From contig NGBS01000878.1 of assembly GCA_002245135.1 (NCBI GenBank), forward strand, positions 1-64,000: a DNA stretch of 64,000 nucleotides, in the 5' to 3' direction. The translations under genes and the position numbers were made by a program. Source of the stretch: Proteromonas lacertae (Eukaryota). Position 1 is the first letter of the stretch. Every line of letters starts with the position of its first letter. Positions 1 to 41,632 of the stretch are shown here, piece by piece. The notes beneath the pieces were generated by a model. It had not been told where the DNA came from. It saw nothing but the letters and a program-made list of their open reading frames with translations, and made no database searches.

Positions 1-34
1 TTCTTAACGTATATATATATATTTATATATAACA

Positions 35-816
35 ATGGGTAAATTTAAAGATTGGTTAAAAAAATCAAAAATTCTATCAAATGCAGCTAAGTTAATACCT
101 TTTGCTGGACAGCAATTGGTGATAGTATTGAGAATATGGGTTATGGTAGACGTAGAAGAAGAAGAACAGTTAGAAGAACAAGAAGAAGTAGTGTAAGAAG
201 AAGATGTCCTTTAAGAAGAAGAAAGACAAGTGCTATTACTTTAACTTGTAATTGCATAAAGGTTAAACAAGGAAGAAGAAAAGCTAGAAAAACAAGAAGA
301 ACTAGAAGACATAGATTTACTAGTGATGGTAGATTAATTAGATCAGCAGGTTTAGGTAGCTGGTTAAAAAAAGGAATAACAAAAGTTAAAGATTTTGTGA
401 CTTCTGACAAATTTAAAAATGGTATTGAAAAAGCAAAAGAGATTAACAGCACATTGAGAGAGAAGAAGTATATAAGCAATATAGCAAGAAAAGCTCGTAA
501 TGTTGCTAATACATTAGGTTTTGATAAAGTTGCTGATGTTGCTGATAAAGTATATAATACATCATCTAAATTCGGTTATGGTAAACAAAGAGTTAAAGGT
601 GGTTTAAGATATAAACAAAATGGTGCTGGTTTAAGAAAACTAATTGCAAGAAGAATGCCAGTTAGTAATGGTGCAGGTAAGAGAAGAAAACTAATTGCAA
701 GAAGTTTGCCAGTTAATAATGGTTTAACAAAACCATGTGGATTTAATAAAAAAGGTATTTATAATCCACAAGTTGATTTAGAAATTTTTTTAGCATACAG
801 TGTTAAACATAAATAA
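35..816 (+). CDS. Arg-rich virion core/membrane-active precursor-like protein (adenovirus pVII/pVI-like analogue); apparent 1-nt frameshift near 110
   Basis: ATG35 gives MGKFKDWLKKSKILSNAAKLIPFAG; a -1 shift at ~110 gives AIGDSIENMGYG-RRRRRR and joins ORF 136..816. The protein has poly-Arg blocks, GYG/GAG/GLG/VKGG sites, and the amphipathic segment GLGSWLKKGITKVKDF. Confidence 0.6.
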
Positions 817-858
817 TAAAAATTAAAAAATATTATTCATTCATAAAATTCTTATATA

Positions 859-893
<35 letters not shown>

Positions 894-896
894 AAA

Positions 897-1466
897 ATGA
901 ATAGTAATAAAAATCAAAAAGTAAAAATTACACGTGATTATTATCATAGTGATTCATCTGATGAAGATGATTATAATACACCATTAGCACAAGATATGAG
1001 TAAGACTGATAGAGAGATTGCAGAGTTATTATATAGGTTAAATAAAAATGAAGATGAATTGGTAAATGATAAATCTGAGTTTAATGAACTAGATGACATT
1101 GATAATAAAAATTATATACCAACAAGGCAATCAGTCAAAAAGAATATAAAATTAAGTGAAGAAGCTAGATTACAAAGAATTAAAAACTTAGAGAAAGCTA
1201 GAGCAACAAGAATGAAAAATTTATATGAGAAGAGAAGGAGAGAAAAAGCATTAGATAATTTGAATATTAAAGAGGTTGAAAAGGATTTAGATGTTGATGA
1301 GACATGTACTCTTGATACAATTAAAAAACCTGTTAATAAAAAGAAATGCATTAAAGTACCTGGTAGTGATGATCCATTTAGTATAGGTGATAAAAAAGAT
1401 GGTTTAGAACCAGTTCCAGAAGATGCTAAGATGCCTGGTGATGATGCAATATTACCAATATATTAA
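897..1466 (+). CDS. Element-encoded hypothetical protein with a basic helix (LSEEARLQRIKNLEKARATR)
   Basis: Intact intronless 189-aa ORF whose ATG is preceded by a (TA)n tract; it lies within the viral gene run. Confidence 0.7.
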   Translation: MNSNKNQKVKITRDYYHSDSSDEDDYNTPLAQDMSKTDREIAELLYRLNKNEDELVNDKSEFNELDDIDNKNYIPTRQSVKKNIKLSEEARLQRIKNLEKARATRMKNLYEKRRREKALDNLNIKEVEKDLDVDETCTLDTIKKPVNKKKCIKVPGSDDPFSIGDKKDGLEPVPEDAKMPGDDAILPIY

Positions 1467-1541
1467 TTTATTATAATATTTTTTATTATATGTTTTCTTA
1501 GTGGTTTTATATATATATATATACATATATACATATATAAT

Positions 1542-4500
1542 ATGAGTAATAAAAAATCAAAAAATAAGTTATCTAAAAAGATGACAAATTTATTAATGAA
1601 GAGAATATTAAAACGTATTAGACGTAGAGCAAAGGTGAAGAAGTTTAATAAACATGTTAAAACTAATAGTGAAGCAGAACTTATAAAGTATTATATGAAT
1701 AGTGTTGAAAGAAATAAAGCAAGAGAGGAAGCATTTAATGAATATAATCAAAAAGAATATATGCAAGGTGTAAATCAAAAAGAATTAATAATATGGATGA
1801 AGCAATGGAACATATTATCAATAATATTGAAAGATATAGAAATCCTGATTCAGATAGGCTAAAGAAAAATTTTGAAATGTATCAAGATGCAATTAGACAT
1901 GGAAAAGCAAGTGCTACAGATGCAGATAAATATTTAGGACCTATTGAACAATCAGTTATGATAGGTGATGAAATTTATCATCATGATCCTAACTTTGTTT
2001 ATACTAGAAATGCACATCATAAACCAGGTGATGATGTTTATAGAAGAGGTCCTCCAAAAAGAGCTTCGATATATTGACCTGATGATGGTGATGATGGAGA
2101 TAATGGAGGTGATGGAGGAAATCATAGAGTTAGAAATCCATTACCAGGACCAAATATACATGGTCCACCACAAGTACCAAATGATGGAAATATTCACATA
2201 GTTCAAGACGGTGGAGGTGATAATGGTGGTATAGTAGTGAACCCACCACCTAGAGTTCCACCTCCTAGAGGTGGTATAGTAGTGAACCCACCAGTATATA
2301 GACATCCTCCACATAGAGTAGTAATAGTTAACCCTCCACCTAGAGTTCCACCTCCTAATGTAGTAAACCCACCACCACCTAGTGGTGATGGTGGTGTTAG
2401 AATAGTTAACCCCCCGCCACCTATAGATGTACCATCTAGAGTACCTGTAGTGAATCGAATTCCTTTAGAACATAATCCATCATCACCAGTGTATGAACCA
2501 GCAAGAATAGTTAATCCACCAGGTATATCTGGAGGATTATCTATTCCAGAAAATAATGTTCCATTAATAGTTCCATCAAGAGATAGAAATTCAACAGATA
2601 ATATACCTTTACCTAACAGTAAACCATCATCACCTATTTATGAAAGAGAAAGAGAAAGAAGTGCATCACCAATACCAATTAATGATAATGATGATGGTGA
2701 GACAAGATATAATTTTAGACGTGAAAGAAATAGACCTAAAAGATATGAAGATGAATTTGTTGCTTATGATGGAACTACATATATTCATGAACCATCAAAT
2801 CGAGTATTAGAAAGTACTAGTCCTCAAATTTATGTAAATAAACCTCACAAGAAAAGAATATTATCTAAAATTACACCACATGAAAATATAAATCAATATA
2901 ATAGAAGATTATTAACTCAAAATAATTATGATGATATAGTAATTGAAGAACCACCTCCACCACTACCACCATTAGTAACAGATAATAGTACATCACCAAT
3001 ACCAGTTAATGATAATGATGATGGTGAGACAAGATATAATTTTAGACGTGAAAGAAATAGACCTAAAAGATATGAAGATGAATTTGTTGCTTATGATGGA
3101 ACTACATATATTCATGAACCATCAAATCGAGTATTAGAAAGTACTAGTCCTCAAATTTATGTAAATAAACCTCACAAGAAAAGAATATTATCTAAAATTA
3201 CACCACATGAAAATATAAATCAATATAATAGAAGATTATTAACTCAAAATAATTATGATGATGTAGTGATTGAAGAACCGCCTCCACCACCAGTAATAGA
3301 TAATAGTACATCACCTATTACAACAAAATTAAGAACAGTTAATGATACATCTAATATAAATTCATATGTAAGATCACCTAGGCATTTAAGAATTATAATG
3401 CCTTCTAGTAATGATATGCAATCATTAATAGTATCAATAAATGATAGAGCACAAAGATCATTGGTTAATAATGGAACAAGTAATTTATTATATGATAATA
3501 ATAATAATTTATCAATTCTTAACGATTCTACTGATTTTATAAATTCTAATAACCGTCATCTTAATATAAATATGGGAAATAATATAGATATTGATCCGCT
3601 ACCTCAAAGTAATGATAATGAAGAACATCAAAGAGAGATAGAAAATAGATTAAATGCTGAGATACAAGAGAGAGAAAGAATAGAACAAACTTGTAAAGAA
3701 TATTTAGCAGAAAGAGATAAAATTAGAAATACAATGGCTGATTATCAGAATCGAATATACAATATGACAGCAATAAATAATAATTTATTAAATAAAATAT
3801 CTTCTCTTGAACAAGAAACTGAATTACAAAATAAATATAATGCTTTAGCTGCTCATTATGAACATGTAAATAATCAATTAAATGAACTACAAAATAGATT
3901 AAATGTACCACATGTTAATAGTAGCACAAATACTATACCAGTTAGTGAAAATGATGAATCAACTAGTCCTATTCCATTAGATATAAATGATCAATCAACT
4001 AGTCCTATATCTATTTCATTAAATACTCAAGATGCATCAACGAATACAGATAAAAATTTAGGAAAAAGAATATCTGTTAAATCAAAACGATTAAATAATG
4101 ATGATTATATAGTTGATTGGAATAGTACAGGAAAATATAAAGATAAAAAAGGTGAAATAAAACTTATAATGAAAGATTCAAAATCAGATAAAAGAAGAAA
4201 TGTTTTACACAATAGAAGAAAAAATAAAAGATTAGATACAGTATCAACTAAATCAACGACAACACCTATTCAACAACCTCCGCCACCAACACCAGTACCT
4301 ATTCAACAACCACCACCACCAACACCAACACCGGCACCTATTCAACAACCATCACCACCAACAACAACACCAACACCACAAACACAAGTACAAGTTCCAC
4401 CATTAAATTTATCTAAAGTAGAAGAGTCAACTTCACCAATACAAAAAGCTAATACTTCTCAAGTACCTTCAATTAACATAAATGAAAAAGCTAAACAAAT

Positions 4501-5356
4501 GCTTAATAATTTCTTTCATGGTGCATCTAAAGCAACTGAAGTTATAAAAAATATGAGTCAAGGAACAGTTAATACTATATCAGATATATTTCATACAATA
4601 AAAAATGTTACGGAAACAGAAAAAAATGAATCAGAAATAAAGAAGAAACAAAAAGAATTGGAATTATTACAAGAAAAACGTGTAAGAGAAAAACGTGCAA
4701 GAGATGAAAGAGCAGCAAAAAGAGAAAGATTAAAAGAAATAAGATTAAGAGCAATTGAAGAGGCTGAAAAATCAGAGAGGAGAAGAAAAGTAGCACAAAT
4801 AAATGAACCACCTCCACCATTACCAGGAAGAGTATTAAGAAATAAAGATGAAAGACGTAAAAATTCGAAATATTATAATAATGATAATTTAGTTGATGCA
4901 AGTGGAAATGGAACATATAAAGATATTAATGGTAATGAAGTTACAATTACAATTGGTAAAAAAGTAAATAAACCTGTTAAGAATAAAAGAAGAAAGATAA
5001 ATATTACATTAAATAATGATAATAATAATAATCAACAAAATGAAGTACCAATTACAAATAATAATAATGAAGTACCAGTTGCTGTAACTGATAATGAAAA
5101 AGAAAAAGATTATGATGATGATCCAGATTCAATTATGGCTGTAGGCTATAATACATTTTATCGTCCTATTAGAGAAGATGCTGATATAAATAGACCACTT
5201 ACATCAAATGCAATTCACTTTAGAGATAATCGAGATAGAATTGATTACTTCCAAATGATTCAAAGTAATGGTATAGATCCTGCTAGAGCACGTTTAAGTG
5301 ATGCTGATTTAAATAGATATTATGAATGGCTTAATAGGTCACATAATAAAAAATAA
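1542..5356 (+). pseudogene. Large basic/Pro-rich/coiled-coil element protein split by a frameshift (~1780) and an in-frame TGA (2075-2077); disrupted or recoded
   Basis: ORF 1542..1862 overlaps ORF 1793..2077 at an A5 run. ORF 1793..2077 and the open frame 2078..5356 are in the same frame, separated by one TGA. The downstream ORF starts at GTG and has no nearby ATG. Confidence 0.6.
2664..3291 (+). repeat. Near-identical 327-bp (109-codon) tandem duplication inside the Pro-rich ORF
   Basis: The segment SPIP(I/V)NDNDDGETRYNFRR...YDD(I/V)VIEEPPPP occurs twice with offset 327 (for example 2705 and 3032) and very few mismatches. Confidence 0.95.
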
Positions 5357-5418
5357 TTGATATATTTATATTTTTTATTTAGACATATATATGATGTTTT
5401 ATATATAAATAACATAGA

Positions 5419-6582
5419 ATGAATGATTTACAACATAAAATTTATGAATTATATAAAGACTTTGGTTATTTAAATAAGAATGATTTCATAAATTTTAGTG
5501 TTGATGAATTATCATCAAAGTATTCAAAACCTGATATAACAAAAACTGCTAAAGAGTTAGTTGAATCAAAACCAGATTACCAAGTAGCAGTTAAAAAAAG
5601 AATAAATATTAAATATGAAATAGAAAAGATACCAGGTTCATATCAAATGGATATTATATTTTTTAATAATACAAAATTACCTTTTTTATTTATAATTGAA
5701 GTAGTTAGTAGAAAAGTGTGGATATATTATGTTAAAAGTAAAACTGAATCAAGCGTATTTCCAGTTTTTGAATCATGGTTTTATCAAGGTCTTAAACATG
5801 TTAATGAAAATGCTAGATTTGTAGGTTCTATTTTGATGGATCAAGAATCTGGTGTAATATATGGTAATAAGTTTTTGCAGCTATTTAATAAAAATAATAT
5901 TAGATTTATAATGAAAGATACTGATGAACATAATATAATGAAAATATTAGATAGCGCAGTAAGAACTATTAAAAATATGTTTTATAGATACTTGAATACT
6001 TTTGATGATAAAGAATTTGAAAAGTTAAATAATCTTAATGGTCTAATTGAAATAGTTAACACTGTAGTATTATATTATAATTCAAAACCACATAGCTCAC
6101 TTAATAATTATACACCAAATGAAGTACATGATGATTTTGAATTACAAGATTTGTTTTATAAAGAATCAAGACAAAGAAATAAAGAACGAAGATTAAAAGA
6201 TACTAAATTTGATAGAAATGAATATGTTAGAGTTAAAGAGAGAAGAAGAAATAAGTTAGATAAAAGTAGATATTTTAATGATAAAGTTTATATGATTGAT
6301 AAAAGAACACCTTTTTCTTACTCATTAAAGAATATAGATGGATCAATTCCTTCTGAATTTAATCCTAAAAACCTTGGTTTATTTAAATTTAAACCATATG
6401 AATTAAGAAAAATTAAAAATGCTATTAAAACAAAGGGTAGATTTAGGTTAAGTGCAATAAAAAGCATAAATTCAAACAAAAATGATAGTGATAAAAATGA
6501 TAAAGTAACATATATTGCACCTAAAAATATAAGAAAGAGTTCTTTTGGTAGAACTATAAGACCTAATTCAAAATATACATAA
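5419..6582 (+). CDS. Retroviral-type (rve) integrase, Polinton/Ginger-like
   Basis: Motifs YQMDII (D78), LMDQES (D141), ILDSAVRTIKN (D178) and YNSKPHSSLNNYTPNEV, followed by an SH3-like tail (F..NEYVRV...Y.LK...FKPYEL). No HHCC zinc finger or chromodomain. Confidence 0.92.
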   Translation: MNDLQHKIYELYKDFGYLNKNDFINFSVDELSSKYSKPDITKTAKELVESKPDYQVAVKKRINIKYEIEKIPGSYQMDIIFFNNTKLPFLFIIEVVSRKVWIYYVKSKTESSVFPVFESWFYQGLKHVNENARFVGSILMDQESGVIYGNKFLQLFNKNNIRFIMKDTDEHNIMKILDSAVRTIKNMFYRYLNTFDDKEFEKLNNLNGLIEIVNTVVLYYNSKPHSSLNNYTPNEVHDDFELQDLFYKESRQRNKERRLKDTKFDRNEYVRVKERRRNKLDKSRYFNDKVYMIDKRTPFSYSLKNIDGSIPSEFNPKNLGLFKFKPYELRKIKNAIKTKGRFRLSAIKSINSNKNDSDKNDKVTYIAPKNIRKSSFGRTIRPNSKYT

Positions 6583-6741
6583 AATAAAAAATTAAACTAA
6601 CTATATTATTTAATATTTTGATTTTATTAAAATAAGCTTGAAATCATCAAACATTTCATTAAAAAACGGTTTCTTTCGATTTTGAAATCATTTTTTATTT
6701 TCGACTTTCTCAACACCTTATTCAATATTTCTTTTTAAAAA

Positions 6742-8156
6742 ATGAGTGTACGTGTTAAACATACTTCACCTAGAGATAATGAAGATAATTCTTCATCAAA
6801 GACATTAAAAGTTGTTAAGAAGAGTATATAAATACATCATTAAATATATATAGATGAAAAGAAGACTCAACAAAATGAAGAAGCATTAGCACTACCTTCA
6901 TCATCGAATTCTAATCAAAAAACAGGTATCTATATATATATTATATTATATTATATTATATATACATAGCTTTTGTGCATAGATTTAACAGAAAAAGCAT
7001 TAACAGCTTAGATGTCAAAGAATGGATTAAAATTAGAAGTATTGCACAAAACATTATAAATTATTGTGATGATAAAATCAAATATATTCATTATAATAAC
7101 AGTCCAAGTTTATTATCCTTATCATCAGTAATTAGATATGCTAGTTCATTAAATTTATTCTTTGATGCAGTTGAAAAGAATCCTCAATACATAAATGGTG
7201 AGGTACTAAAAGATATTGATGAAGTCTTATTAATTAGCCCATATTCTCTAGGTGACAATTTTACAACTGATAATAAGTTATTAGGTGGTGTGAAAAGAAA
7301 AGCTAATATTGATGATGATGATGAAGATGATGATGGATGTATTAAACGCAGTAAAAGATGTAGAAAACTAACACCTAAATCAAATATTGGTGGTGAAAGC
7401 ATTAAAGTGCATAAAATAAATACTACTATCAAAAAGCCTTTAAAGTCTGAGAAGAATTTAGTTGATGATGCATTAAAAAATAAGGAGACTGATTGGATTA
7501 ATGATAATGATGTTTTTGAAGATTTTGATGATGATAATGAAGTTATCAAAATTAATGTATCAAAACCAAAGGTAAATATAAAAAAAGATAAAATTACACC
7601 AGTAGCTAAAGTTATTACTGATGAAACTAAAATTACACCACCAGCTAAAGTTATTATTAATAAAGATACATTAAAGGAAATGGAAGACAATATTAACAAT
7701 GATAAAGATTATTATTACAGCAAACATAATTGGGCTAATCCCAAAAAAATTATACAACCAACACTTAAACCGATATTACCTAAAGTGAATTATGAAATTG
7801 CTGAACCACCACCAATAGTTCATGAAAAACCAATTGTTAAAGAAATAGCACCATCATTACCACCTAAACCTTTAGTTAAGATTGCACCTAAACCTTATGG
7901 TACAATCATTAAAGACAATACTCCACCAGTTAAAGTTACACCACAAGATCAGTATGATGTCTTTAAAAAGAAGGTTGAATATCAAAATGAATTAGAAAAA
8001 CAAATTGCTTCATTGAAAAAGACATATGTGCAACAGTTAAGAGATGAAAACCCTAATCTCAAGTTTGATGATGATGGCAATATTGTTGATGTTGATATTG
8101 ATAATGATATTGATTTCAGTCCAGATGAAAGTATATTTGATGACTTTCTTAAATAA
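6742..8156 (+). CDS. Hypothetical Lys/Pro-rich protein, 3 exons
   Basis: ATG6742; removing GT-AG introns 6824-6853 (30 nt) and 6926-6969 (44 nt) joins in frame to ORF 6975..8156. Confidence 0.75.
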
Positions 8157-8322
8157 AAAAAAGTAATTAAAATACTTACTTCTATTTTGCTAAGTTATAC
8201 CTTATCTTTATATTAAAAAGGTAGTCTTTAAAGAATTGAATTATTATTTTTGTTTTTTATTTGGGAAAGATATATACATACATATTCATCTATTACATTA
8301 TAAAATATAACATATATATTAA

Positions 8323-8661
8323 TTAATTATTTTTCTTCTCATTCATATCTAAACTTATATCATCTAGTGATCTATTTGAATGAATTCTTGATACTTTTGG
8401 TGATGGTAGAGGCACTGTTCTTGACATAAATGTAGTCATAGGAACTGATGTACTTGGTGTTACTGGTTCATCTAATATTCTTGATATATCTTCTGGGCAA
8501 TGTCTTCGATATAAATAAACACCTATTTGTTTGATTTTATTTAATAACCATAAACCTAACAAAAATAATACTATATACATCTCATTTTTAAGTGAATCAA
8601 CTGTACTTGATACATCTTTCAAAGAATTCAATATAGATGTATTTGATGATTGATTCATCAT
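8323..8661 (-). CDS. Small single-pass membrane protein
   Basis: 112-aa ORF with the hydrophobic segment MYIVLFLLGLWLL followed by basic residues; a TA tract precedes the ATG. Confidence 0.6.
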   Translation of the reverse strand: MMNQSSNTSILNSLKDVSSTVDSLKNEMYIVLFLLGLWLLNKIKQIGVYLYRRHCPEDISRILDEPVTPSTSVPMTTFMSRTVPLPSPKVSRIHSNRSLDDISLDMNEKKNN

Positions 8662-8751
8662 ATATATAAATACACTTAAAAACTCTATTATATATTAGAG
8701 AGAAACCCAAATAGAAATAATGATTCAATATATATATATATTTAACAATTT

Positions 8752-9210
8752 TTATAATTGTATTTTATTAAGTTTATGAATATAATGTCTCATGCATTTC
8801 TTACATACATTATTCTTATATATTTTTAACTTAGATTTCATTTTTCTACATATAAAACATCTTATTTTATCGTCATCTTTTCTATGCTTATGTTTAGCTG
8901 AATATTTTGTTAAATTTTTATAGTATTTAAATAAGAATTTAAAACATACTTTACATAATGTAATTTCTTTTGATCTATACTCATTTTTAAAGAAACGAGC
9001 GCAATAACCACATTTAAATTTATCATCAGCATCAACTGATATGCTTCTAAGTTCATTCTGTTTTTTACTTCTATATTTTGCACCATAACATCTATTATAT
9101 TCTTTGCATTTATTACAAAGAATTGTAATTCTACCTCTATCATTCATAAAATCATTAATAGGCTTAATACATTCACATCTTTTACAGCGCTTTTTTTCAC
9201 TTGTATCCAT
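8752..9210 (-). CDS. Basic Cys-rich zinc-finger protein (three CxxC...CxxC units)
   Basis: CKRC..CNKC, CGYC..CKVC and CFIC..CKKC; intronless and Lys-rich, as in small viral DNA-binding proteins. Confidence 0.75.
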   Translation of the reverse strand: MDTSEKKRCKRCECIKPINDFMNDRGRITILCNKCKEYNRCYGAKYRSKKQNELRSISVDADDKFKCGYCARFFKNEYRSKEITLCKVCFKFLFKYYKNLTKYSAKHKHRKDDDKIRCFICRKMKSKLKIYKNNVCKKCMRHYIHKLNKIQL

Positions 9211-9296
9211 TTTTCTATTTTTATAAAAAAGAAAAAATAATGTAAAGAAAATTTATAATGAAAATCTTATCGAAAATTATAGTGTTGAAAAACACT

Positions 9297-9361
9297 TGTT
9301 ATTTTCGTTTATTTTATTGGTTTATGTTATTTTCGATTATTTTATTGGTTTATGTTATTTT
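9297..9361 (-). promoter_or_regulatory. 28-bp tandem repeat (x2.3), each full copy with a CCAAT box, upstream of the zinc-finger gene
   Basis: TGTTATTTTCG(T/A)TTATTTTATTGGTTTA at 9297 and 9325; ATTGG is CCAAT on the minus strand, ~110-140 nt upstream of ATG9210. Confidence 0.5.
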
Positions 9362-9579
9362 TATTAATTTTATATAGAAAAAATAAAAAAAACAATTCAA
9401 TCAATAGTAATAAGTGTTAATTATAACATTACTATATTTTTCTAATTAGTTTTTATCTTTTAATACCTTCTTAGTGATACTCTTTAACACTTTAGGATTT
9501 AATCTGTGCTTCTTCATCATTTTTTCTTCTAACTCTTGTTTTTTGAACATTGTATCATAATAACGCTGGAGGTCCATAG

Positions 9580-10119
9580 CTAGTGACATGTCACTAGCAA
9601 CTTTGAAATTGAGCTCTTCTCTTTCTGCCTTGGCTCTTCTTCTACCATCTCTGATCCTTTTACCTACTAAGCTTTCATTACGCAGCTTTTTGATTTCTTC
9701 GTAGGTTAAGGTATCAGATGAAGATGGTGGTGGTATTGGTGAATAACTATAAATAAATATATATATAAATAATATAAAATATACATTGGCGATTTTTCTT
9801 CTGCTTTTGGAGGTTCATCATTAGGATTATCGATTTTGATATATAAACGATATGGATTAAATGGATTAAAAGGACGACCAGTTACTGGTGCACCTAATAA
9901 AATTATATATATATCAGAGTAATAAATTATACTGATTCTACGTCTTTTAATACCTTTAGACTGATCCATTAATGCACATTTGGTACATATATCCCTAACT
10001 TTATGATTAGGTATGCTACTGATGTTTTTTAAGCGATTTTCAAAGTCTTTATCACTTTGAGTACTATTACTATCACTATCAGTATCAGTGTCTGATACAT
10101 ATATCACTTGATGACTCAT
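9580..10119 (-). CDS. Hypothetical protein, probably 3 exons; C-terminus possibly disrupted
   Basis: ATG10119 with candidate introns 9894-9932 and 9747-9784. The spliced frame stops at 9580, while an overlapping frame (RIRDGRRRAKAER...KDKN) runs on to 9446. Confidence 0.5.
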
Positions 10120-10166
10120 TATTTTTAAAATTAATTATTTTATGAAAATGTCAGGAAAATGCTGAA

Positions 10167-10445
10167 TGAACTCTAGATGCAAAATCAATTATATATCTAA
10201 ATTTTTATATTATTTAATGAATCATGATTCATTTGAGAATTTCTTGATGTTTTTGATGTATCTTTTATTATTAACAAAATATATATAAATATTAAAAAAA
10301 TATGTATATTAATCATCTCTACAGATTTATAGTGAGATGAATCAATTATAGAGTTTTTAGAATTTTTTAGTGAACCTCTAGATTTAGTGAACCTCTAGAT
10401 GTAGTGAGCTGTTCTACCCCCCAGCAGGGTAGTCATCTCTACAGA
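10167..10445. repeat. Repeat cluster, putative terminal/subterminal region of the element
   Basis: 17-bp tandem TTTAGTGAACCTCTAGA (10366, 10383); TGAACTCTAGA (10167); 13-bp direct repeat TCATCTCTACAGA (10313, 10433); hairpin CTACCC-N7-GGGTAG (10414-10432). Confidence 0.7.
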
Positions 10446-10659
10446 AAACCTTACGGATGATATATATAGAATGATTTAAAAATTGGAGAGTTTAATCGAT
10501 TAAAATTGACTACAAATTAGTAAAATTGTTTACAAATTGTATATAAATTGTTTATAAAATGTAACTAAAAACATTGATTTTACTGTAAATTGTTTATTTT
10601 AAAACTCTCTATGTTTTTTCTTTTCCTCTATTATATATAAGAATATACTTCAAACATAT

Positions 10660-13428
10660 TTGAATGATAAAATGAAAAAGAATTGTGGATTGAATAAGTC
10701 AATAAATATGGATGAACATATATCATACGGTTGTAGTTATTATGGTTTGATATTAAATGGTTTATGGAATTATGAAGTAATAGACGAAGATGAAAATGAA
10801 TTATTACTGTCAAATTACAGTGAAAATACCAAGAAGACAATTATTGAAATGAATAATCATTTATCTCAATTTTTATGTGGATATAGTGATTTAACAATTG
10901 ACAATAAAGAAAGAAAGTTATTGAATGAATATTTTAAAGGTGAAATGGAATTAATAACATCAACTATATGCATTGATTCAATTGAACAATCAATTGATGG
11001 AATTGATTATGATACTCATCTTCAAGAAGCATATAAAGCAAGGAATGATATGGAAAGTGCAATATATGATCTTCAACACGATTTAGAATTAATACAAGAT
11101 AAAAAATTCGTAGAAAAAGAGAATGAAGAGTTAAACAAAGTGATTGAACAATTGCACAATGATAAAGGTTTAAGAATATTACATGCAGTAAAAGAATTTC
11201 AGAGTGATTTCTATAAGAAATGGGAAGAAAAGAAAGAATCAAGATTACATTTAGCAATGCAATTATGGTATAGTCAATTATATATATATTTTTTATTTGT
11301 AATAGTGAATTATCTATTACTGCATATCCTAAAGAAAGATCAGAATATGAAAGTAAATTGAATGAATTGAAAAGTCTAGATATAAAGAAAGATCCAATGT
11401 CTAAATATATCATAACATGCAATGTATTATAGATTATATAATAGCCTTATAGAATATGATTAGTAAGAAGAAAAAGATATTAGAAGATTTGAAGACTTTA
11501 GTGTATATAATGAATATATAACTCATTAGTACTGAATACATTAAAGTAATTTCCTCATCAAATGTATTAAATGATGTGTTTAATACTTTGAATCCTAAAC
11601 TCACAGAATTAGTGAAAATAATATCAACAGAGAATTTAAATACTATTTATACAAAGCGTAACGTTATAGAAGGAATATTCACAAAATATAATACTTCAAT
11701 TATAAAAGATTTGTATATTGTTGATAATTAGTATATGTAATAGAAATATTAGATTAAACAAATGTAGTTCTTTGGGAAATGATGTAGTTGATATATCTGC
11801 TTTAGTTAAAGATATTGAAACATTAAAATCATACATAAATGGAGAAAAACTTGAAAAATCTCCAAATGGACTAAAGTATGTTTTTGATGAATATAAAGTA
11901 TGATAGTATCTTTAAAAATATTAATGTATAGAAAATAAATAGTGATTATATTAAAATGAAGAGAGAAATAACTAAAAAATTAAGAGAATTTAAGTATATT
12001 TGTTATTTTATAACATATAGACAATCAATACTAGATGAGATAAAACAAATTGATCAACCAATTCCAAAAGAAATAGAGGAATTGAAAACAACAATAGAGA
12101 AAGTAGAAATAGCTGAGAATATTGATCTTCCTGAATGTAAGAATAAAATTACTCAGTTGGGAAATCCTTATGCAATAGTTGTTAAAAAATATGAAAGTGA
12201 ATTGAATGTATATAATTCATAAATATTAATGAAATAGGAAAAGAAAAATATGTTAAAAAAAGAATTGGATGTTTGTGTTATTAAAGATATTAAAGATTCA
12301 TATTTAGGTACTGTTACTACTTTAACATGTGAATCAAGTTTACTACCATTATGTAATGGTATTAAAGTATAATAAATTGCTGTATTAAACAAATAGATAC
12401 TAAACGAAACTAAATGTAATTATTTAAATGAAATGAAAAGTAAGATGAATGGGTTGATGTATTTTTTAATGTTTTATTATTTGAATAGAAAAGATATTAA
12501 AGAAAATGTAAAAGAAATAGAAGAATCAGATAAACAAGTTTTAGATGAAGGAGATAAAGATATTAACAATAGAATAATAGTATCTGAAGAATTATGTAAT
12601 ACATATACTAGGTTTTATTTGAAGTGACAAATAAATATAAAAACAAATATATAGAAAGAATAAAAGAACTGAATAAGAAATTAAATGAAGTTGATAATAA
12701 AGATCAACAACTGACAGAATTATTGAATAAATCAAAAGAGAATCTTGAAAAAATCAATGAAACTAATCTATATGGTGTAGTAATTGAATGTAATGTATTT
12801 TGTATTTATTATTTTTATAAATATAGAAATTGAATGATGAAATAGAAAGAGTAAAGAAAATGAATGATGAATTTATTAAAAGCTATTTGTATTTATTATT
12901 ACTTTTAAGTTTATTAAATAGAGTTAAATATCAAGTATTGTATGACAGAATTAAAGATAATAAAAAATCTTTTAAAATACCTATAAGTCAATTTATTATG
13001 ATGTTTGATGTATTAAATAGTAATTTGTCTAACCTAAGAGTTGATGTTTATTGTAAGAAAGTTGAAAAAGCATACAATAATGTAATTAAAAATATGAAAA
13101 AGAAGATAAAAGAAAAGAAGTATAATTAATTACATTTATAAATAATAGTTCAAATTTTGATTTATCAAATAAGAAAGATGAAGAAATAGTAACTCTTTAC
13201 TTAAATCCACCTCATCCACCATCTCAACCAGAACAGAATAAAGCACCAACTAATGATTCAACAAGTGTTAATACAGAACAACCACCTCCTCCTTCTACAC
13301 AGCTAGATGATAAAGATACAAAGAAACTTCCTTCTGCACAACAATCTCCTAATAATGCTAATCTTCCTATTCCTGTGAATGATATAGAATTTAAAGAAGA
13401 ATTAATTTTCCTTCCATCCTCAAAGTAA
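10660..13428 (+). CDS. Multi-exon coiled-coil protein with Pro-rich C-terminus; 5' end uncertain
   Basis: A chain of same-strand ORF pieces joined by many short GT-AG introns; the last exon PPHPPSQPEQ...FLPSSK ends at TAA 13426-13428. Confidence 0.65.
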
Positions 13429-22902: not shown

Positions 22903-25900
22903 ATGAGTGATATAGAGAATAATGAATTAAATGAGTCAAATGAAAATATAGATGATAGTGGCACAAATATATCTAACAACCTGGAAGGTAGTAGAGGTGA
23001 TAATGAAACAATGGAAGCAGATAATGAAAATAACAACCAAACTGAAAATCTAGATGATTCAGATTTATCTGAAAAGAAAGATAATGATGATAACTTAGAT
23101 GAGAACAATAATGACGAAGAAGGTAATAGTACAGAAGACAACCCTCCTGTTGATGTAAATGAAGGTGAAGAATCGACAGAATCACCAAATAAGGCTGAAG
23201 AATCTTTAGAAGAATCAGATGAAGGATATAATGATAATTTAGTTGGAGATATAATAAATGAGCATAATGATAAAATAGAAGAAAGTGGATTTGAATCATC
23301 TTTCGCTGATTCAATGACTCACACCAAATCTCCAATACATAAAAATCCAGAATTAGAGACAGTAAATGAAAATGAAGATAATAATACAAATGAAGAATCT
23401 GTAGAAACAACAAAAACAGAACCTGTTGAAGAAGCAAATGAAGAGAATGATGAAGAGAAAGAGGAGGAGAATGTAGAGAATGAAGAAGAAAAAGAGAATG
23501 AAAATAATGAAGAAAATATTGAAGAAGAGAAAGAAGAAGAATCAAAAGAGGAAGAAAATGTAGAGAATGAAAAAGAGAATGACAATAATGAAGAAACAGT
23601 TGAACAACCAACTGAAGAAACAAAAGAAGAAGAAGAGAATGAAGATAATAATGAAAATAACAATGATAATGATAAGAATGAAGAATCTGTAGAAACAACA
23701 AAAACAGAACCTGTTGAAGAAGCAAACGAAGAGAATGTAGAGAATGAAGAAGAAAAAGAGAATGAAAATAATGAAGAAAATATTGAAGAAGAGAAAGAAG
23801 AAGAATCAAAAGAGGAAGAAAATGTAGAGAATGAAAAAGAGAATGACAATAATGAAGAAACAGTTGAACAACCAACTGAAGAAACAAAAGAAGAAGAAGA
23901 GAATGAAGATAATAATGAAAATAACAATGATAATGATAAGAATGAAGAATCTGTAGAAACAACAAAAACAGAACCTGTTGAAGAAGCAAACGAAGAGAAA
24001 GATGAAGAGAAAGAGGAGGAAGAGAATGTAGAGAATAAAGAAGAGAATAATAGTGATGAAGAAACAAAAGAAGAAGAAGATAATGAAGAAGAAAGAAGAA
24101 GAAAAGAAGAAGAATCAGCTGTAAAAATTGAATCTTTATTTAGAGCTAAAAAAGCTCGAGAAGAAGTAGAAAGAATGAAAAGAGAAAAAGCTGAAGAAGA
24201 AAAGGATAAAGAAGATAATGAAAATGAAGATAATAATACAGAAGATAATGAAGAAACAGTTGAACAACCAACTGAAGAATCAAAAGAAAACAATGATGAA
24301 GAAACAAAAGAAGAAGACGAAAATAATGAAGAAGAAAGAAGAAGAAAAGAAGAAGAATCAGCTGTAAAAATTGAATCATTGTTTCGAGCTAAAAAAGCTC
24401 GAGAAGAAGTAGAAAGAATGAAAAGAGAAAAAGCTGAAGAAGAGTTAAGAAAATTAGAAGAAGAAGCTGCAGAAAGACAAAAGAAATGGGAAGAAGAAGA
24501 AGAAAAGGAAAGACAAGAAGAACTTAAAAGAAAAGAAGAAGAAAGACAAAAACAATTAGAAATAGAAAAAAGAGAAAAAGAAAAAGAAGAAAAAGAAAAG
24601 AAAAGATTTGAAGAGCTTGAAGCAAAGCTTAAACAAATTGAAGATGAGAATAATGAAGTAATCAATGAAAATAGAAATGGTATAAAACCAATATCGCCAA
24701 TAACAACTGTAGAAACACATATAATACAAGAAAAACCACCAATTACAAATAATGAAGAAGAAGAAGAAGAAGAAGAAATAATTCCAAAATCAAATCATAA
24801 ATCATCTAAAGTTGTTCCAATACCAAGTGATGATGTAGAACCAATAAAGAATCATCGAAGAAAGCAACCTGATAATATTAATGAAAATGATTCAATGGAA
24901 AGAGTTCCAAAAGCTAAAAGATATTATTCAACAAAAGATAGTCGAATTCCTCCCAAGAAAACAATTAGACCAGAAAATAGAAAAGTTGAAAAGTCTCCAG
25001 AAGAAGAAATTAGTTATAATGTTCAAAAACAAGGATTAAAGAGTGATAATAAAAGAAGATTCCAACCAGAACCAATAAGAAGTAGTAGAAATAATAAAGA
25101 TGAAAAATTACCAGCAATTACACCAAAGTCTAATGTATCTGCTGTAGATGCTCAAAAATTATTAGAAATAAAAGCAATGGATAGAAGAATGACTGATAAA
25201 ATAATAGCCAAATATGAAACAAAGATAAGTCAATTATACAGTAGAATCAAGACATTAGAAGATGAAAATACAAAGTTAAATAAAGATAGTGAAGATTATG
25301 TAAGAAAATGTAAAGAAGTATCATTACATCAAAGTAAACAATTACGTTTAGAACAAGAAGTAAACAGACAGCAAAAGACAATAGATGATTATGCAAATAG
25401 ATTAGAATCAACATTACAAGATAATAAGTTATTAGCTGATAAATATATGGTAGTGATGGAAGAAAATAAAACTTTGAAACAAAAATTACAGAAATTAAAA
25501 ATGAGATTAGATGGTAGTGGTTTATCAGGAAATCCAGTTCCAGCAGAACCAACCAATAATGAACAGAATTTACAATTAGAAATTGTTGAATTAAGAAAGA
25601 AACTCCAAGATGCAAAGAAAAAGATAAGAAACTTAAAAGAAATAAATGAAAATCAATTGAGTTATAATGCCAGTAGTAAAGGTGGTGAAGTAGATCGTTC
25701 TGTAGAAGATGAGTTAAAACATTTACAATATGAAAATGAGCAATTACGAAGAATAGTTGAAGAAGATCAGAAAGCAATGAAATCCTTCTTAAAAAGATCA
25801 GAAATGGAAGGCTATGGTGGTGATGTTGAAAAAAGTCCAATTATTAGAACAAGAACAAAAAAGAGTGGGAAAATTGTACCAGAGTCTTATACAGAAAAAA

Positions 25901-26112
25901 CTAAAAATTACTCAGTTTATGGTTATCCAAAGAAGAACAAAACTAAGAGAGGAATTCAACCTCGACAAGAACAGAATCAGTGTTATTTCCCAGCTTTGAA
26001 TAAGCAAGGTCCACATTATGTGAGTGGTAGTAAGAGTAGTAGTTATTTATATCCACCAAAAGTGAGGGATGAACCAATTGATTTTGAAGATGAAGATTAT
26101 CCTTTATATTAA
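22903..26112 (+). CDS. Intronless acidic-repeat and coiled-coil protein with two IQ-like motifs
   Basis: 1069-aa ORF with an E/N-rich repeat N-half, two copies of AVKIESLFRAKKAREEV, and a long C-terminal coiled coil. Confidence 0.85.
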   Translation: MSDIENNELNESNENIDDSGTNISNNLEGSRGDNETMEADNENNNQTENLDDSDLSEKKDNDDNLDENNNDEEGNSTEDNPPVDVNEGEESTESPNKAEESLEESDEGYNDNLVGDIINEHNDKIEESGFESSFADSMTHTKSPIHKNPELETVNENEDNNTNEESVETTKTEPVEEANEENDEEKEEENVENEEEKENENNEENIEEEKEEESKEEENVENEKENDNNEETVEQPTEETKEEEENEDNNENNNDNDKNEESVETTKTEPVEEANEENVENEEEKENENNEENIEEEKEEESKEEENVENEKENDNNEETVEQPTEETKEEEENEDNNENNNDNDKNEESVETTKTEPVEEANEEKDEEKEEEENVENKEENNSDEETKEEEDNEEERRRKEEESAVKIESLFRAKKAREEVERMKREKAEEEKDKEDNENEDNNTEDNEETVEQPTEESKENNDEETKEEDENNEEERRRKEEESAVKIESLFRAKKAREEVERMKREKAEEELRKLEEEAAERQKKWEEEEEKERQEELKRKEEERQKQLEIEKREKEKEEKEKKRFEELEAKLKQIEDENNEVINENRNGIKPISPITTVETHIIQEKPPITNNEEEEEEEEIIPKSNHKSSKVVPIPSDDVEPIKNHRRKQPDNINENDSMERVPKAKRYYSTKDSRIPPKKTIRPENRKVEKSPEEEISYNVQKQGLKSDNKRRFQPEPIRSSRNNKDEKLPAITPKSNVSAVDAQKLLEIKAMDRRMTDKIIAKYETKISQLYSRIKTLEDENTKLNKDSEDYVRKCKEVSLHQSKQLRLEQEVNRQQKTIDDYANRLESTLQDNKLLADKYMVVMEENKTLKQKLQKLKMRLDGSGLSGNPVPAEPTNNEQNLQLEIVELRKKLQDAKKKIRNLKEINENQLSYNASSKGGEVDRSVEDELKHLQYENEQLRRIVEEDQKAMKSFLKRSEMEGYGGDVEKSPIIRTRTKKSGKIVPESYTEKTKNYSVYGYPKKNKTKRGIQPRQEQNQCYFPALNKQGPHYVSGSKSSSYLYPPKVRDEPIDFEDEDYPLY
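23389..24442 (+). repeat. Internal coding tandem duplications
   Basis: NEESVETTKTEPVEEANEE starts at 23389, 23677 and 23941 in near-identical DNA; the IQ-like block is duplicated at ~24080-24200 and ~24325-24442. Confidence 0.9.
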
Positions 26113-26247: not shown

Positions 26248-27534
26248 TTATACCAAAACCTCATCATAATCATTAACATAACTGATAAGTACAGGATAAT
26301 CAATACCAAGCTCAATATTGAGTTTTTCTTTGAAATGATTGAAATAGTGTCTTTCCTTAATATTTCCTAATAGTATAATATAAGATCCTTTAGATGTTAT
26401 ATCCAATATCTCAGTATGACTAAGTTCATCTGTTATTAATACATCAGCATGAATATATTGAAAAATTCTATATTTTGATTCACCACTACAAATAGCAATT
26501 TTACTAACTCTTCGAAGATCATTTGGTGGTTTCTAATGAGAATAATAAAAATAATGAAAATAATAAATGTATATAGATACTGCAATTTGAATATAATTAA
26601 TTCCATAATACTGTTTAATTCTATTCACTAAATCATCGATAGATATATCAGGAATAATATCACATATTCTTCCACATCCACAATCAATTTCTAGTTGATT
26701 TGGTTCAATAGGTTTTGGATTTATTCCACCTATTCCTATAGTTAACCAATCATTTACACCATTTACTACATTGTCACAACTTGTATGATGTATATATATT
26801 CCTATTCCATTAGTTATACAGTTTAATATTATTCTACCAATTCTATCTTCATAGTTAAGTTTTTTAATATCTGTTTTTATTAGTGGTTTATAACTCACAA
26901 TTATATACACTTTATTGTGAATTGCTTCATTCACTACTGAATCATTAATTTCATAAGTTAATAGAAGCTTGTAAGGAGGCTTGATGAGTAGTTGGGAAGG
27001 TTCTAGAATTAGTCCAACATTATCATCATCTTCACATAATTTGATTGGATGGGTTTTGTCCAAAGCTTTTAGTATCTTATTGACAGGTTCATTTTCTGAT
27101 ATTATTTTTGGCATTTTGTCAATTATTTCCCTCTTTACTGAATATATTGTACTTGATGGCACTTCATATCCTTCTGATAAAAGAAACATTTTCAAATCTT
27201 TAGCTGTAGCTTTTGGATTTGCCATTAAAATAGGTGTAATCTTATTAACAAGCGTTTTATGAGTTAGAATGCAACTACATCTCTTCCTTTCCACAGGTAT
27301 ATCACCAATTGAGTGGACATGCTTTTCCAATAGCAAAGTACACTTTACTTTGTCATCTTTATGTTTGCACATTAAACATTTGAATGGGCAACCCTTATAA
27401 TTGCAAGATATCTTAAATGAGTTGGCACTTCTTTTTATTGTAGGACGAAACAGATTATTCTCACCATATTCATCAACAGCTTTTCTTGCCTGATATTTGT
27501 TAAGGAATATAACACCTTGTTGCAAAACTGACAT
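26248..27534 (-). CDS. Fusion of a Mutator/MuDR-type (WRKY-GCM1-like) zinc DNA-binding domain to a degenerate NIF3/DUF34 domain; 2 exons
   Basis: N-terminus G.IF....AR.AV..Y...ISC...GCPF......LLEKH.H. C-terminus DNVGLILEP, LLTYE, VSYKP, IYIHHTSCD...GVNDWL; after the 48-nt intron 26533-26580 come IAICSG and ADVLITDELSH. Confidence 0.8.
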
Positions 27535-36280: not shown

Positions 36281-36423
36281 ATTCATTTTTTCATAAAACA
36301 ATAAAACAAAGTAAATGAACATTTAATAGAATATAAAAATATAGTATTTCTAAACAACTAAATATGATAAAACTCAAAACTATACAAATGTAAATTATAC
36401 ACTCTATGAGGATGATACTATGA

Positions 36424-37423
36424 TCAATTACTAGAAGATGGCGGTAATAACACTTTATATGATGATGATTGGGTAGAGTTATATATTTCAGGCATTAGTG
36501 GTTGTTGTTGAGTTGGTTGATCGATATTCACTACATAACTACCTTTAGCTTGTTGTGGTTGTGGTTGGTTTTGAGGTAAAGGTGATGGTTGATTCATATT
36601 TATAGTATTTGTATTTGGAGGTGTTAAATCTACTGGAATTCCTTGAACTATGTTATAAAGTTGTTGTTGCTGATGCTGTGGTTGTTGTTGTAGCTGTTGA
36701 ATTTGAGCTAAAGGTATTCCACTCATTAATACACCATCAGTTGTAATAAAGTTAATCATTTCAATACCTCCTTGATTTGACAATCGATTTATATATGTAT
36801 TATTGAAATATGGATGATTGAAAAGACTTTTACCTTTAATAATTGAAATTAACTACATAATAGCAAAACATATAATATATACTGAAACAAAAATTATTAT
36901 TATAAATAATGAAATACTTACGTACAAGTATACATCAAAATTTTTATTCAAATAAAAATCACATATATCTCTATCGCTTATATCACCTTCTTCACATCTT
37001 CTTATTATATGTTCCTTTTCTGATGCTTTTATTGTCCACTTTATAATATAAAAAATCTAATCATAATAACGTATATTAGACAAATAATACTGACAGAACA
37101 ACTTCGCAAATACTGCATGACGTAAACTGTATATAAATAATAATGATTCATAATACAATATTCCATAATCCTTTTTCTTTATTGTTATAGCCAACAATAC
37201 CGCATATTGGAATTACAATTGATAGAAATGTTGATAAAACTGCCAGTTCAATAGCATAAGTAAAATAGGATATGATCATATTGGTTATAAACATTAACTA
37301 TTATAAAAATAAAAAAATACTGCTACTAAAATAGATAAACCTATTGACCATCTATATGTATTCTTCAAATCATCTGGTGGTTGTTGAGACTATAAATAAT
37401 AAATACAGCTATACTTCTTCCAT
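36424..37423 (-). CDS. Multi-exon membrane protein with Q/P-rich tail (paralogue 1)
   Basis: Micro-exon ATGGAAGAA and a 25-nt intron, then hydrophobic exons; the last exon GGIEMINFITTDGV...KVLLPPSSSN. Confidence 0.7.
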
Positions 37424-37644
37424 TAAAAACAAAAAAATAACAATTTGGGGAAATTTTGGTTGAAAATGTTTAAACAATTTCTGTTTTATCAGTTATACAG
37501 AGTAATTACTTCACTGATATAATTATATTTCATTTCATAACATGATATTCACACAAATAATTAACAAAACATAAAATTATAATATTTCCATACTATAAAA
37601 CAGATTATATTCTAACAAAGATGTTGATTTTAATGATATTCAAT

Positions 37645-38580
37645 TTAACTAGGGGATTTATTGTATTTTTCATTATTTGAAGGAGGTGGTAGTAGTACTT
37701 TTGATGAATCTGATTGACTAGAGTTATATACTTCAGGTATTAATGGTTGTGGATTAATATTAACTACATATGAATTTGGAGGGATTGGATCTGTAGGTAT
37801 AGCTTGAACTATATTATAAGGCTGTTGTGGTGGTAATTGTTGAGATGGTGAAGTAACTGGTATTCCACTCACAACTACACCATTAGCTGTAACAAATTGC
37901 ATCATTTCCATTCCTCCTTGATTTGTTGTATTTGATAATTGATCAATTGATATATAACCAAAATATGGATGATTAGTAATACTTCTTCCTTTATTACATG
38001 ATAAGAACTATTTATATAATAAGCTAATATATATATACTGAGAATATTATTATCATTATAGATAGGATTACACTTATATAGAAAAATACATAAAACCATT
38101 TACTACAATATAAATCACACAACTTAAATTTTGAATAATCTTCATCTCTTCTACATTTTTCTGCAGCATATTCTCGGAATAAAGACATTATTATCCAATT
38201 AAGAATATAAAAACTCTATAAAAATTATAGAAACATATTAATATACAGCTGCTACAATTTCACAGGCATTACAAAATGTAAACTACATTAAATAATATTA
38301 TATATATACAAATCCCCACAAACAACTATTTTTACTTCTTAAACTATAAACACCAAGTAAAGGGATAAATAATGATAATATTGAAGGTGGAAAAGAAAAA
38401 AAATCATCAGTCTTAGTATAGACTGAGATTATCAAATATATAACGAATGATAACTAACTTAAAATAAACTCATATACTGTAGTTAAAGCTGATAAACCTA
38501 TAGACCATTTGGATCTTATTTTAAAATCATCTGGTGGTTGTTGAGACTATAAATAATAAATACAGCTATACTTCTTCCAT
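37645..38580 (-). CDS. Multi-exon membrane protein with Q/P-rich tail (paralogue 2)
   Basis: Same start and first intron as paralogue 1; the last exon GGMEMMQFVTANGV...KVLLPPPSNN is clearly homologous. Confidence 0.7.
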
Positions 38581-38800
38581 TAAAAACAAAAAAATAACAA
38601 TTTGGGGAAATTTTGGTTGAAAATGTTTAAACAATTTCTGTTTTATCAGTTATTCAATGATTATAAACTATATTCATACATATATTGATTTATTTTGTTA
38701 TATTTTGTTTAAAATAGAAGGTTGTTTAGATGTCTATTTAGAGTGAAATTCATTTTAACAGAACAAAGCAAATACAATACATTATATATATCATTATTGT

Positions 38801-41209: not shown

Positions 41210-41632
41210 ATGTCAGGTAAAGGTAAAGGAGGAAGAGGTGGTAAAACAAGTGGTAAGACCATTTCAAGATCATCCAAGGCTGGACTTACATTCCCTGTAG
41301 GAAGAATCGCTAGATTGATGAGAAATGAACATGTAGCTGATCGTATTGGTGCTGGTGCTCCAGTTTATTTGGCGGCTGTGATTGAGTATTTAACTGCTGA
41401 GATTCTTGAATTAGCAGGAAACTCAGCCAAAGATAGTAAAAAATCTAGAATTATTCCACGTAATATTCAATTAGCAATAAGAAATGATGAAGAATTCGCT
41501 AAATTGTTTAATAATGTGACTATTGCAGGAGGAGGTACTTTACAGATGATCCATCAAGAATTATTAGCAAAGGGAAGTAAAGCAGCAGCTGATAGTGATA
41601 ATGAAACTGGTTCTGCTTCACAAGCTTACTAA
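41210..41632 (+). CDS. H2AX: Histone H2A with C-terminal SQAY (H2A.X-type)
   Basis: [15 protein letters not shown]...[25 protein letters not shown], with a terminal SQ-x-Phi motif. Confidence 0.9.

Follow-up and report, generated by a model that had tools for sequence, protein, structure and literature searches.

Midsize eukaryotic linear double-stranded DNA (MELD) viruses that combine an integrase with unrecognisable virion proteins have been described from Blastocystis datasets, and membrane-active and pX-like core proteins have been described for adintoviruses (Starrett et al., PMC8502044). In protist genomes, endogenous Polinton-like viruses (PLVs) occur as 15–30 kb insertions with terminal inverted repeats and an integrase of either the retroviral (rve) or the tyrosine-recombinase type (Bellas et al., PMC10120064). 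PLVs of Proteromonas lacertae have been noted, and PLV capsid genes have been reported for this gut stramenopile genus (bioRxiv 10.64898/2026.07.28.741278); in Table S1 of PMC10120064, Proteromonas is entered with 285 in an unlabelled count column and ten Blastocystis rows are blank. Mavirus and the endogenous mavirus-like elements (EMALEs) have element-specific promoter motifs, and their insertions often lie within host genes (PMC8547959, PMC6048507). Here, a stretch of 64,000 nucleotides from P. lacertae (contig NGBS01000878.1; referred to as the window) was analysed. Its left end is probably one arm of a Polinton-like virus integrated there; the capsid and ATPase genes that define such viruses are not among the genes in view. 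Because such viruses have been reported from gut stramenopiles, it would be a virus of an already-known kind. That the arm is the right-hand one, of MELD type, and runs from position 1 to about 10.2–10.6 kb with genes A to D (listed below) included has about an even chance of being correct.

The features of this region and of its border with the host part are as follows.

35–816 (+): open reading frame (ORF) 1, a basic Arg/Lys-rich protein, predicted virion core precursor (family alignment, composition).
897–1466 (+): ORF2, a charged orphan of 189 aa preceded by a long (TA)n run (reading frame, upstream scan).
1542–5356 (+): ORF3, a Pro/Asn-rich low-complexity unit of about 1,270 codons (reading frames, repeat scan).
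5419–6582 (+): stand-alone rve (retroviral-type) integrase, intact, 387 aa (Pfam, Foldseek, alignment).
6742–8156 (+): gene A, a 446-aa orphan with two predicted host-type GT-AG introns, 6824–6853 and 6926–6969 (intron scan).
8323–8661 (−): gene B, an orphan of 112 aa predicted to have a single hydrophobic membrane segment (Kyte-Doolittle 1.63, residues 30–48).
8752–9210 (−): gene C, an intronless 152-aa zinc-finger protein with six CxxC pairs (sequence motif).
9297–9373 (no strand): tandem repeat of a 28-bp unit (2.8 copies) on the upstream side of gene C (repeat scan).
9446–10119 (−): gene D, a 198-aa orphan with two predicted host-type introns, 9894–9932 and 9747–9784 (intron scan).
10171–10445 (no strand): short-repeat cluster (CTCTAGA/CTCTACAG), candidate terminal-repeat region (repeat scan).
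10486–10610 (no strand): AAATTGT repeats within an imperfect, weak inverted repeat, belonging either to the end of the element or to the promoter of the gene that follows.
10672–13129 (+): first host-like, intron-rich gene, end approximate (intron scan).

The window is eukaryotic, with the standard code, about 26% GC and many AT-rich GT-AG intron candidates of 27–67 nt. Within the arm, seven genes of no known family surround one intact integrase gene. The four co-oriented plus-strand units (ORF1 to ORF3 and the integrase) fill positions 35–6582, and the intron scan that gave many candidates in the host part gave none in them. The run of co-oriented ORFs described in the initial annotation is thus borne out for these four units, and so are its convergent small ORFs, which correspond to genes B, C and D. 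Its description of this run as intronless holds for ORF1 to ORF3 and the integrase; genes A and D, farther along the arm, have two predicted introns each, leaving six genes without candidate introns. Two corrections to that annotation were needed: ORF1 and the third unit are in fact broken by frame changes or an in-frame TGA, and gene A, the fifth plus-strand gene, had been omitted.

The Pfam rve match to the window integrase is weak (E 2e-4, below the curated cut-off), and rve was found in 12 of the 17 aligned family members. A structure model (predicted local distance difference test, pLDDT, 63) matched retroviral intasomes and integrases in Foldseek with E ~1e-10, and together the Pfam and Foldseek results confirm that an rve integrase had been correctly recognised. 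In the viral Foldseek library, the best matches are retroviral Pol proteins; the integrase of a MELD virus ranks seventh (E 1.4e-8) with 18% identity, the highest among the 50 matches listed, and the mavirus integrase ranks sixteenth with 13%. D78 and D141 are invariant across the 17 aligned sequences, and the third acidic residue is likely to be D179, a position at which relatives carry D or E.

A profile search returned 1,863 relatives of the integrase at E ≤ 0.001. The 152 of these that were examined are 131–539 aa long, that is, stand-alone or partial, and the HHCC pattern was found in none of them; the window integrase contains no cysteine. In PMC2836005, the Ginger2 transposase is described as having an N-terminal H2C2 finger and Polinton integrases as being without it. 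Because the integrase is without an HHCC/H2C2 finger, Ginger2/TDD elements are excluded by the distinction drawn in that source, and the grouping with Ginger/TDD transposons that would have spoken against a virus was not borne out by this trait. Of the class-level traits, an integrase without the N-terminal H2C2 zinc finger (Polintoviricetes) and an integration gene of rve or tyrosine-recombinase type (Polisuviricotina) are both present, the latter as the rve integrase. An origin from the Pol of a long terminal repeat retrotransposon or a retrovirus was also considered and rejected: the gene has its own ATG and stop, encodes 387 aa and has no reverse transcriptase family in the neighbouring ORFs. 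The integrase is flanked by ORF3 and gene A, not by a protein-primed DNA polymerase B.

A tree of the integrase was built by a quick method from 61 rows, namely the window protein, the integrase of metagenome contig L001, P0001–P0004 and those of the hits P0049–P0110 that reach 300 aa, to the exclusion of shorter or lower-ranked ones; the tree holds no named references, so that placement relative to Polintons or Ginger is impossible. The result showed that the window integrase falls in a 14-row clade of unnamed proteins (SH-aLRT branch support 100), which fits the earlier suggestion of an undescribed lineage. Cluster look-ups gave no names for the relatives of the integrase or of ORF1, and six window proteins have no entry in the cluster collection. 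The integrase alignments A1, A4, A6 and A7 found no relative in the viral contig collection, and one integrase relative was found among 218 pattern matches in metagenome contigs.

L001, a 5.6-kb metagenome contig, is the one locus of the family that was retrieved. At positions 2–5139 (+), the gene of a DNA polymerase B of the protein-primed type (Pfam E 1.9e-10) lies directly before an rve integrase gene and overlaps its start, which is the pairing of polymerase with integrase known from Polintons. The L001 integrase is related to the window integrase (hhalign 99.4%, E 2.5e-21) and lies outside the 14-row clade as a distant relative. In viral contigs it gave two 33-residue matches (E 4e-4, contigs L002 and L003), and none of seven window proteins aligned to either contig.

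ORF1 is the second protein with a family of its own. Four relatives were found by single-sequence search (E 1e-59 to 3e-9) and a fifth by profile, all of them unnamed Logan proteins. The family is strongly basic (isoelectric point 10.7–11.8, K+R 22–30%) with amphipathic helices of hydrophobic moment 0.5–0.7. Glycine accounts for 15 of 48 invariant alignment columns, among them those of GYG (twice), GG and NG, and GYG and GG are invariant in all five of five sequences. According to PMC6048507, mavirus packages its integrase in virions, and its protease cleaves GY↓G as well as GG↓X; the invariant GYG and GG of ORF1 are the kind of motif cut by such virophage proteases. The pattern G[YAS]G, picked after the fact, is enriched in ORF1 with p 0.0005 in the window copy and 0.02–0.08 in the relatives. 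Adomavirus LO6 is described as a cleaved core protein and a proposed fusion of pVI and pX (bioRxiv 10.1101/341131). From these sequence features we infer a virion-core role for ORF1. The structure model of ORF1 has a pLDDT of 43. Core alignment A3 found no relative in viral contigs, and neither A3 nor A2 found one in genome contigs. The initial annotation had named single-copy host orthologues of the flanking ORFs as a finding that would speak against a virus; for ORF1, with no Pfam family and unnamed Logan relatives, the outcome is in favour of one.

The two families may be compared by their clusters. The near clusters of the integrase and of ORF1 both show 99% internal identity, and their commonest sequences occur on 35 and 46 contigs, respectively; the farther clusters have 15 and 17 members at 89–100% identity, with longest contigs of 9,460 and 9,425 bp. 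This matching of near and far tiers suggests that the two families may travel together.

Between ORF1 and the integrase lie ORF2, whose PHROG matches are weak and of unknown function (best E 1e-3), and ORF3. The latter contains 10.6% Pro and 12.6% Asn and an internal 327-bp duplication (2660–3290) whose copies differ at 5 of 304 bases; no family was found for part 2078–5353 in Pfam, PHROGs or NCBIfam. In 2078–5356 (+) there are also three basic stretches of the form R..R..P/K.RY/KY, resembling the C-terminal tails of the integrase and of its relatives P0004 and P0049. These stretches may have a role in chromatin binding. A frame change interrupts ORF1 near base 110, a point that four relatives with the same N-terminus pass in a single frame; ORF3 shifts frame near 1790 and contains an in-frame TGA at 2075–2077. 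The frame breaks of both lie within or beside short single-base runs. Frame breaks in multicopy viral insertions of protists are described as often being assembly artefacts (PMC10120064), and those of ORF1 and ORF3 may be assembly errors or decay.

Unspliced, gene A meets a stop after 29 aa, and spliced it encodes 446 aa without a stop; its last exon belongs to no family in Pfam or NCBIfam. The spliced frame of gene D likewise contains no internal stop. Gene C has ESM Atlas look-alikes at 0.92; most of them are viral clusters, and a minority carry a Stc1-domain label. The recognition lies below the threshold of the tool, which makes it a weak lead.

Upstream sequence and codon use suggest two classes of genes. 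ORF1 to ORF3 and the integrase have (TA)n runs of 8–27 nt within 35 nt of the start. The longest run is 7 nt or less before genes A, C and D and 11 host starts, and gene B has a short run of 7 abutting its ATG. The GC content of third codon positions (GC3) is 0.05–0.12 in ORF1 to ORF3, the integrase and genes B and C, 0.14 in gene A, 0.23 in gene D and 0.12–0.17 in ten host stretches. A leave-one-out codon score was positive for ORF1, ORF2, the integrase, gene B (+1.9) and gene C (+7.0), and negative for ORF3, gene A (scored with one intron still included), gene D and all ten host stretches. Because genes B and C lie beyond gene A, gene A would be nested within the element if B and C belong to it. 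One reading, by analogy with punuivirus, is that the spliced genes are early and the intronless ones late.

The right end of the element lies somewhere between 10.13 and 10.67 kb, one copy being insufficient to fix it. CTCTA[GC]A, a motif chosen after viewing, occurs five times in 10131–10460 against 0.07 expected from 11001–64000, so that the repeat cluster noticed in the initial annotation is real, and a 17-bp tandem is present at 10366–10407. An inverted copy of 10.1–10.45 kb, which that annotation had proposed to look for, was not found: 10121–10670 has no inverted copy elsewhere in the window, and blastn gave only short AT-rich matches. A terminal hairpin found no support, the folding of 10300–10600 being not clearly beyond that of shuffled sequences (z −1.62, 7/100). 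Positions 10603–10760 (+) encode about 40 residues like the end of the HSP70 nucleotide-binding domain, the preceding ~340 residues being absent; the match is weak (Pfam E 0.0012 over profile positions 354–442, below the cut-off; best PDB E 0.02). The gene at 10672 may have been cut by the insertion. As the initial annotation had stated, ordinary host genes adjoin the repeat cluster: those to the right of the arm, among them a HECT ligase, dihydroorotate dehydrogenase (DHODH) and histone H2A, are intron-rich and of ordinary host type.

Several observations weigh against reading the left end as a viral arm. No capsid, penton, ATPase, protease or replicase was found within 1–10.6 kb in Pfam, PHROGs and NCBIfam scans, and the integrase is the sole protein of the arm named by these databases; since its top Foldseek matches are retroviral Pol proteins, its fold alone cannot single out Polintons. 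ORF1 has no Pfam family, no PDB match and no ESM Atlas look-alike at 0.9, and no database link to any named core protein was found. The window copy of ORF1 contains no site of the strict adenain consensus, and the extended consensus, with two to four sites per protein in the ORF1 family, is not above shuffles (p 0.06–0.57) and matches host proteins too. The GC content of the arm (25–27%) shows no contrast with that of the host part (22–29%), genes A and D combine introns with host-like codon use, and ORF3, with a leave-one-out codon score of −12, is not element-like on this measure. The (TA)n contrast is itself evidence for the element, with a run of at least 8 nt within 35 nt of the ATG in four of eight element genes and none of 11 host genes (p 0.018); it was obtained, however, with a threshold set after viewing, host starts taken by eye, an upstream window of ORF1 that began one base early, and gene B (7) under the threshold. 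The three frame breaks fall within the first 2.1 kb and may be true decay. The earlier claim of an endogenous virus arm is partly supported, by the integrase without HHCC and by the basic ORF1 family, but not by any virion or replication hallmark gene in the window, nor is the arm intronless throughout.

The same observations allow other explanations. An element of the same kind of virus might end at about 6.6 kb, genes A to D being host orphans or another insertion and the repeats at 10.2–10.45 kb a host promoter region. A and D would fit this by their introns of host type and by a codon use (log-likelihood ratios of −12 and −40) and an upstream sequence that both resemble those of the host; none of the four genes was seen to accompany the integrase. 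Nevertheless, B and C lie beyond A and yet are intronless, low in GC3 and element-leaning in codon score, gene C resembles viral zinc-finger clusters (weakly), and the sole distinctive repeat cluster is at 10.17–10.45 kb, with none in 6560–6800, so that a short arm is considered unlikely. A relative without a capsid, either a transpoviron-like replication-integration module or a Polinton-type transposon minus its morphogenesis genes, would move by its integrase and form no particles of its own. Such modules have been described (bioRxiv 10.64898/2026.10.13.758929), no capsid gene is in view, and L001 carries only polymerase and integrase on its 5.6 kb; however, a particle would best account for a conserved basic protein that has amphipathic helices and Gly motifs of protease type, and 10 kb without a replicase still allows a full-size genome, which makes this relative quite unlikely.

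The concentration of frame breaks at the left edge of the window might also point to a chimeric stretch, in which the assembler fused part of a free small virus or of a giant virus to a host contig, or to an old giant-virus remnant with a captured integrase. This is improbable, given that GC and CpG depletion in the arm agree with those of the host part and that the introns of A and D are of the host's own style, which speaks for long residence in this nucleus. A small cut-and-paste transposon, Ginger2/TDD-like or unnamed, could have brought in the integrase only, among lineage-specific host genes, with ORF1 as a host basic chromatin protein. Integrase folds are common to transposons, weak IS481/IS30 matches (E ~0.01) were obtained and the integrase tree is without named reference rows; against these stand the missing H2C2 finger, the tight packing of the integrase between its neighbours ORF3 and gene A, the lack of inverted repeats on its flanks in a list of the 25 longest pairs, and the intronless, low-GC3, (TA)n-led style that ORF1 to ORF3 share with it. 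This transposon is regarded as very improbable.

On the viral reading, the genes for capsid, packaging, protease and replication would be located left of the window. The viral genome would be linear and 15–30 kb long, and the integrase would join its terminal repeats to host DNA, duplicating a short target sequence. After reactivation, the early host-like genes A and D, and probably also the zinc-finger gene C, would be transcribed by host RNA polymerase II and their transcripts spliced. The late class would comprise the intronless genes behind (TA)n runs (ORF1 to ORF3, the integrase and probably B), whose products would enter the particle. A clan CE protease of adenain type would process the ORF1 core precursor at GY↓G, GA↓G and GG↓X. 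One product would be an Arg-rich peptide that condenses DNA, and the others would be amphipathic peptides acting on membranes, so that a single chain would combine the counterparts of adenovirus pVII/pX and pVI. The integrase would be packaged, as in mavirus, and would insert the incoming genome. The stronger proposal, that this is a so far undescribed lineage of small integrating DNA viruses, met until now only in assemblies of sequencing runs, with a two-tier programme like that of a latent giant virus (early genes spliced and host-like, late genes intronless and led by (TA)n promoters) and a single core precursor joining DNA-condensing and membrane-lytic peptides, is put forward tentatively and is somewhat doubtful.

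Polinton-like viruses are common in protist genomes, and one more arm would be ordinary. The integrase and the core-like protein of this lineage, though, have only unnamed close relatives, and surveys based on capsids may miss such a group. No paper evidently describing the lineage was found in the literature, although preprint supplements may list related elements; the words 'polinton' and 'integrase' do not occur in a Blastocystis genome paper. Should genes A and D prove to be part of the element, some genes of a small virus of this group would depend on the host spliceosome, contrary to the working assumption that such viruses are intronless, and the gene callers used on them would miss regulatory genes. 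ORF1 also makes it possible to test concretely whether cleavable core proteins in the style of adenoviruses are used by protist Polinton-like viruses.

Other features were observed in the host part of the window. A protein of about 3,780 aa, encoded nearly in one exon at 49198–60571 (−), carries a hydrophobic segment in its C-terminal part, matches no Pfam family at E 0.01 and resembles a large surface protein. At 26533–27534 (−), a NIF3/DUF34 domain (E 6e-26) follows a stretch of some 150 residues that faintly matches MuDR DNA-binding and HTH_psq domains (E 0.13 and 0.19), perhaps a transposon-derived fusion; this gene and a long, divergently oriented gene resembling phosphatidylinositol 4-kinase (PI4-kinase) start only 38 bp apart. 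An acidic coiled-coil protein at 22903–26112 (+) contains a perfect 264-bp tandem duplication (23467–23999), and two tandem paralogous membrane-protein genes with Gln/Pro-rich tails lie at 36400–38700 (−). Histones H2B and H2A form a divergent pair 183 bp apart (41027, −, and 41210–41632, +), and an alpha-2-macroglobulin-like gene (Pfam A2M E 0.009) occupies 61760–64000 (+).

Compared with known systems, the locus resembles MELD viruses in joining an rve integrase to putative virion proteins that, like those described in PMC8502044, are not recognisable by primary sequence; it differs in the low identity of its integrase (18%), in the absence of PolB, hexon, penton and adenain from the window and in its two predicted spliced genes. 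Protist PLVs, as described in PMC10120064, are defined by a capsid gene, which is absent from the window, and are intronless. With mavirus and the EMALEs it shares a stand-alone rve integrase and motifs of the GG↓X and GY↓G type, which in mavirus are protease sites (PMC8547959, PMC6048507), whereas the integrase identity to mavirus is 13% and no virophage core gene is in the window. EMALEs are described as having own genes without introns and a GC content different from that of the host (PMC8547959), in line with the general description of protist endogenous viruses and EMALEs as intronless (PMC10120064, PMC8547959); dinoflagellate elements are described as containing intron-generating transposons (PMC12166617). 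Ginger2/TDD elements are alike in an integrase-like DDE transposase that groups near Polinton integrases (PMC2836005), but the N-terminal H2C2 zinc finger is theirs and the window integrase has no cysteine. The two-tier layout, in which (TA)n-led genes without introns stand next to spliced genes of host-like character, is the one unusual lead of this locus. Its counterpart is punuivirus, the latent virus of Chlamydomonas, which is a giant virus with transcriptome evidence, while the present element is small and its tiers are predicted from sequence; in punuivirus too, intron-bearing host-like genes stand against genes with viral promoters (bioRxiv 10.64898/2026.10.09.758095).

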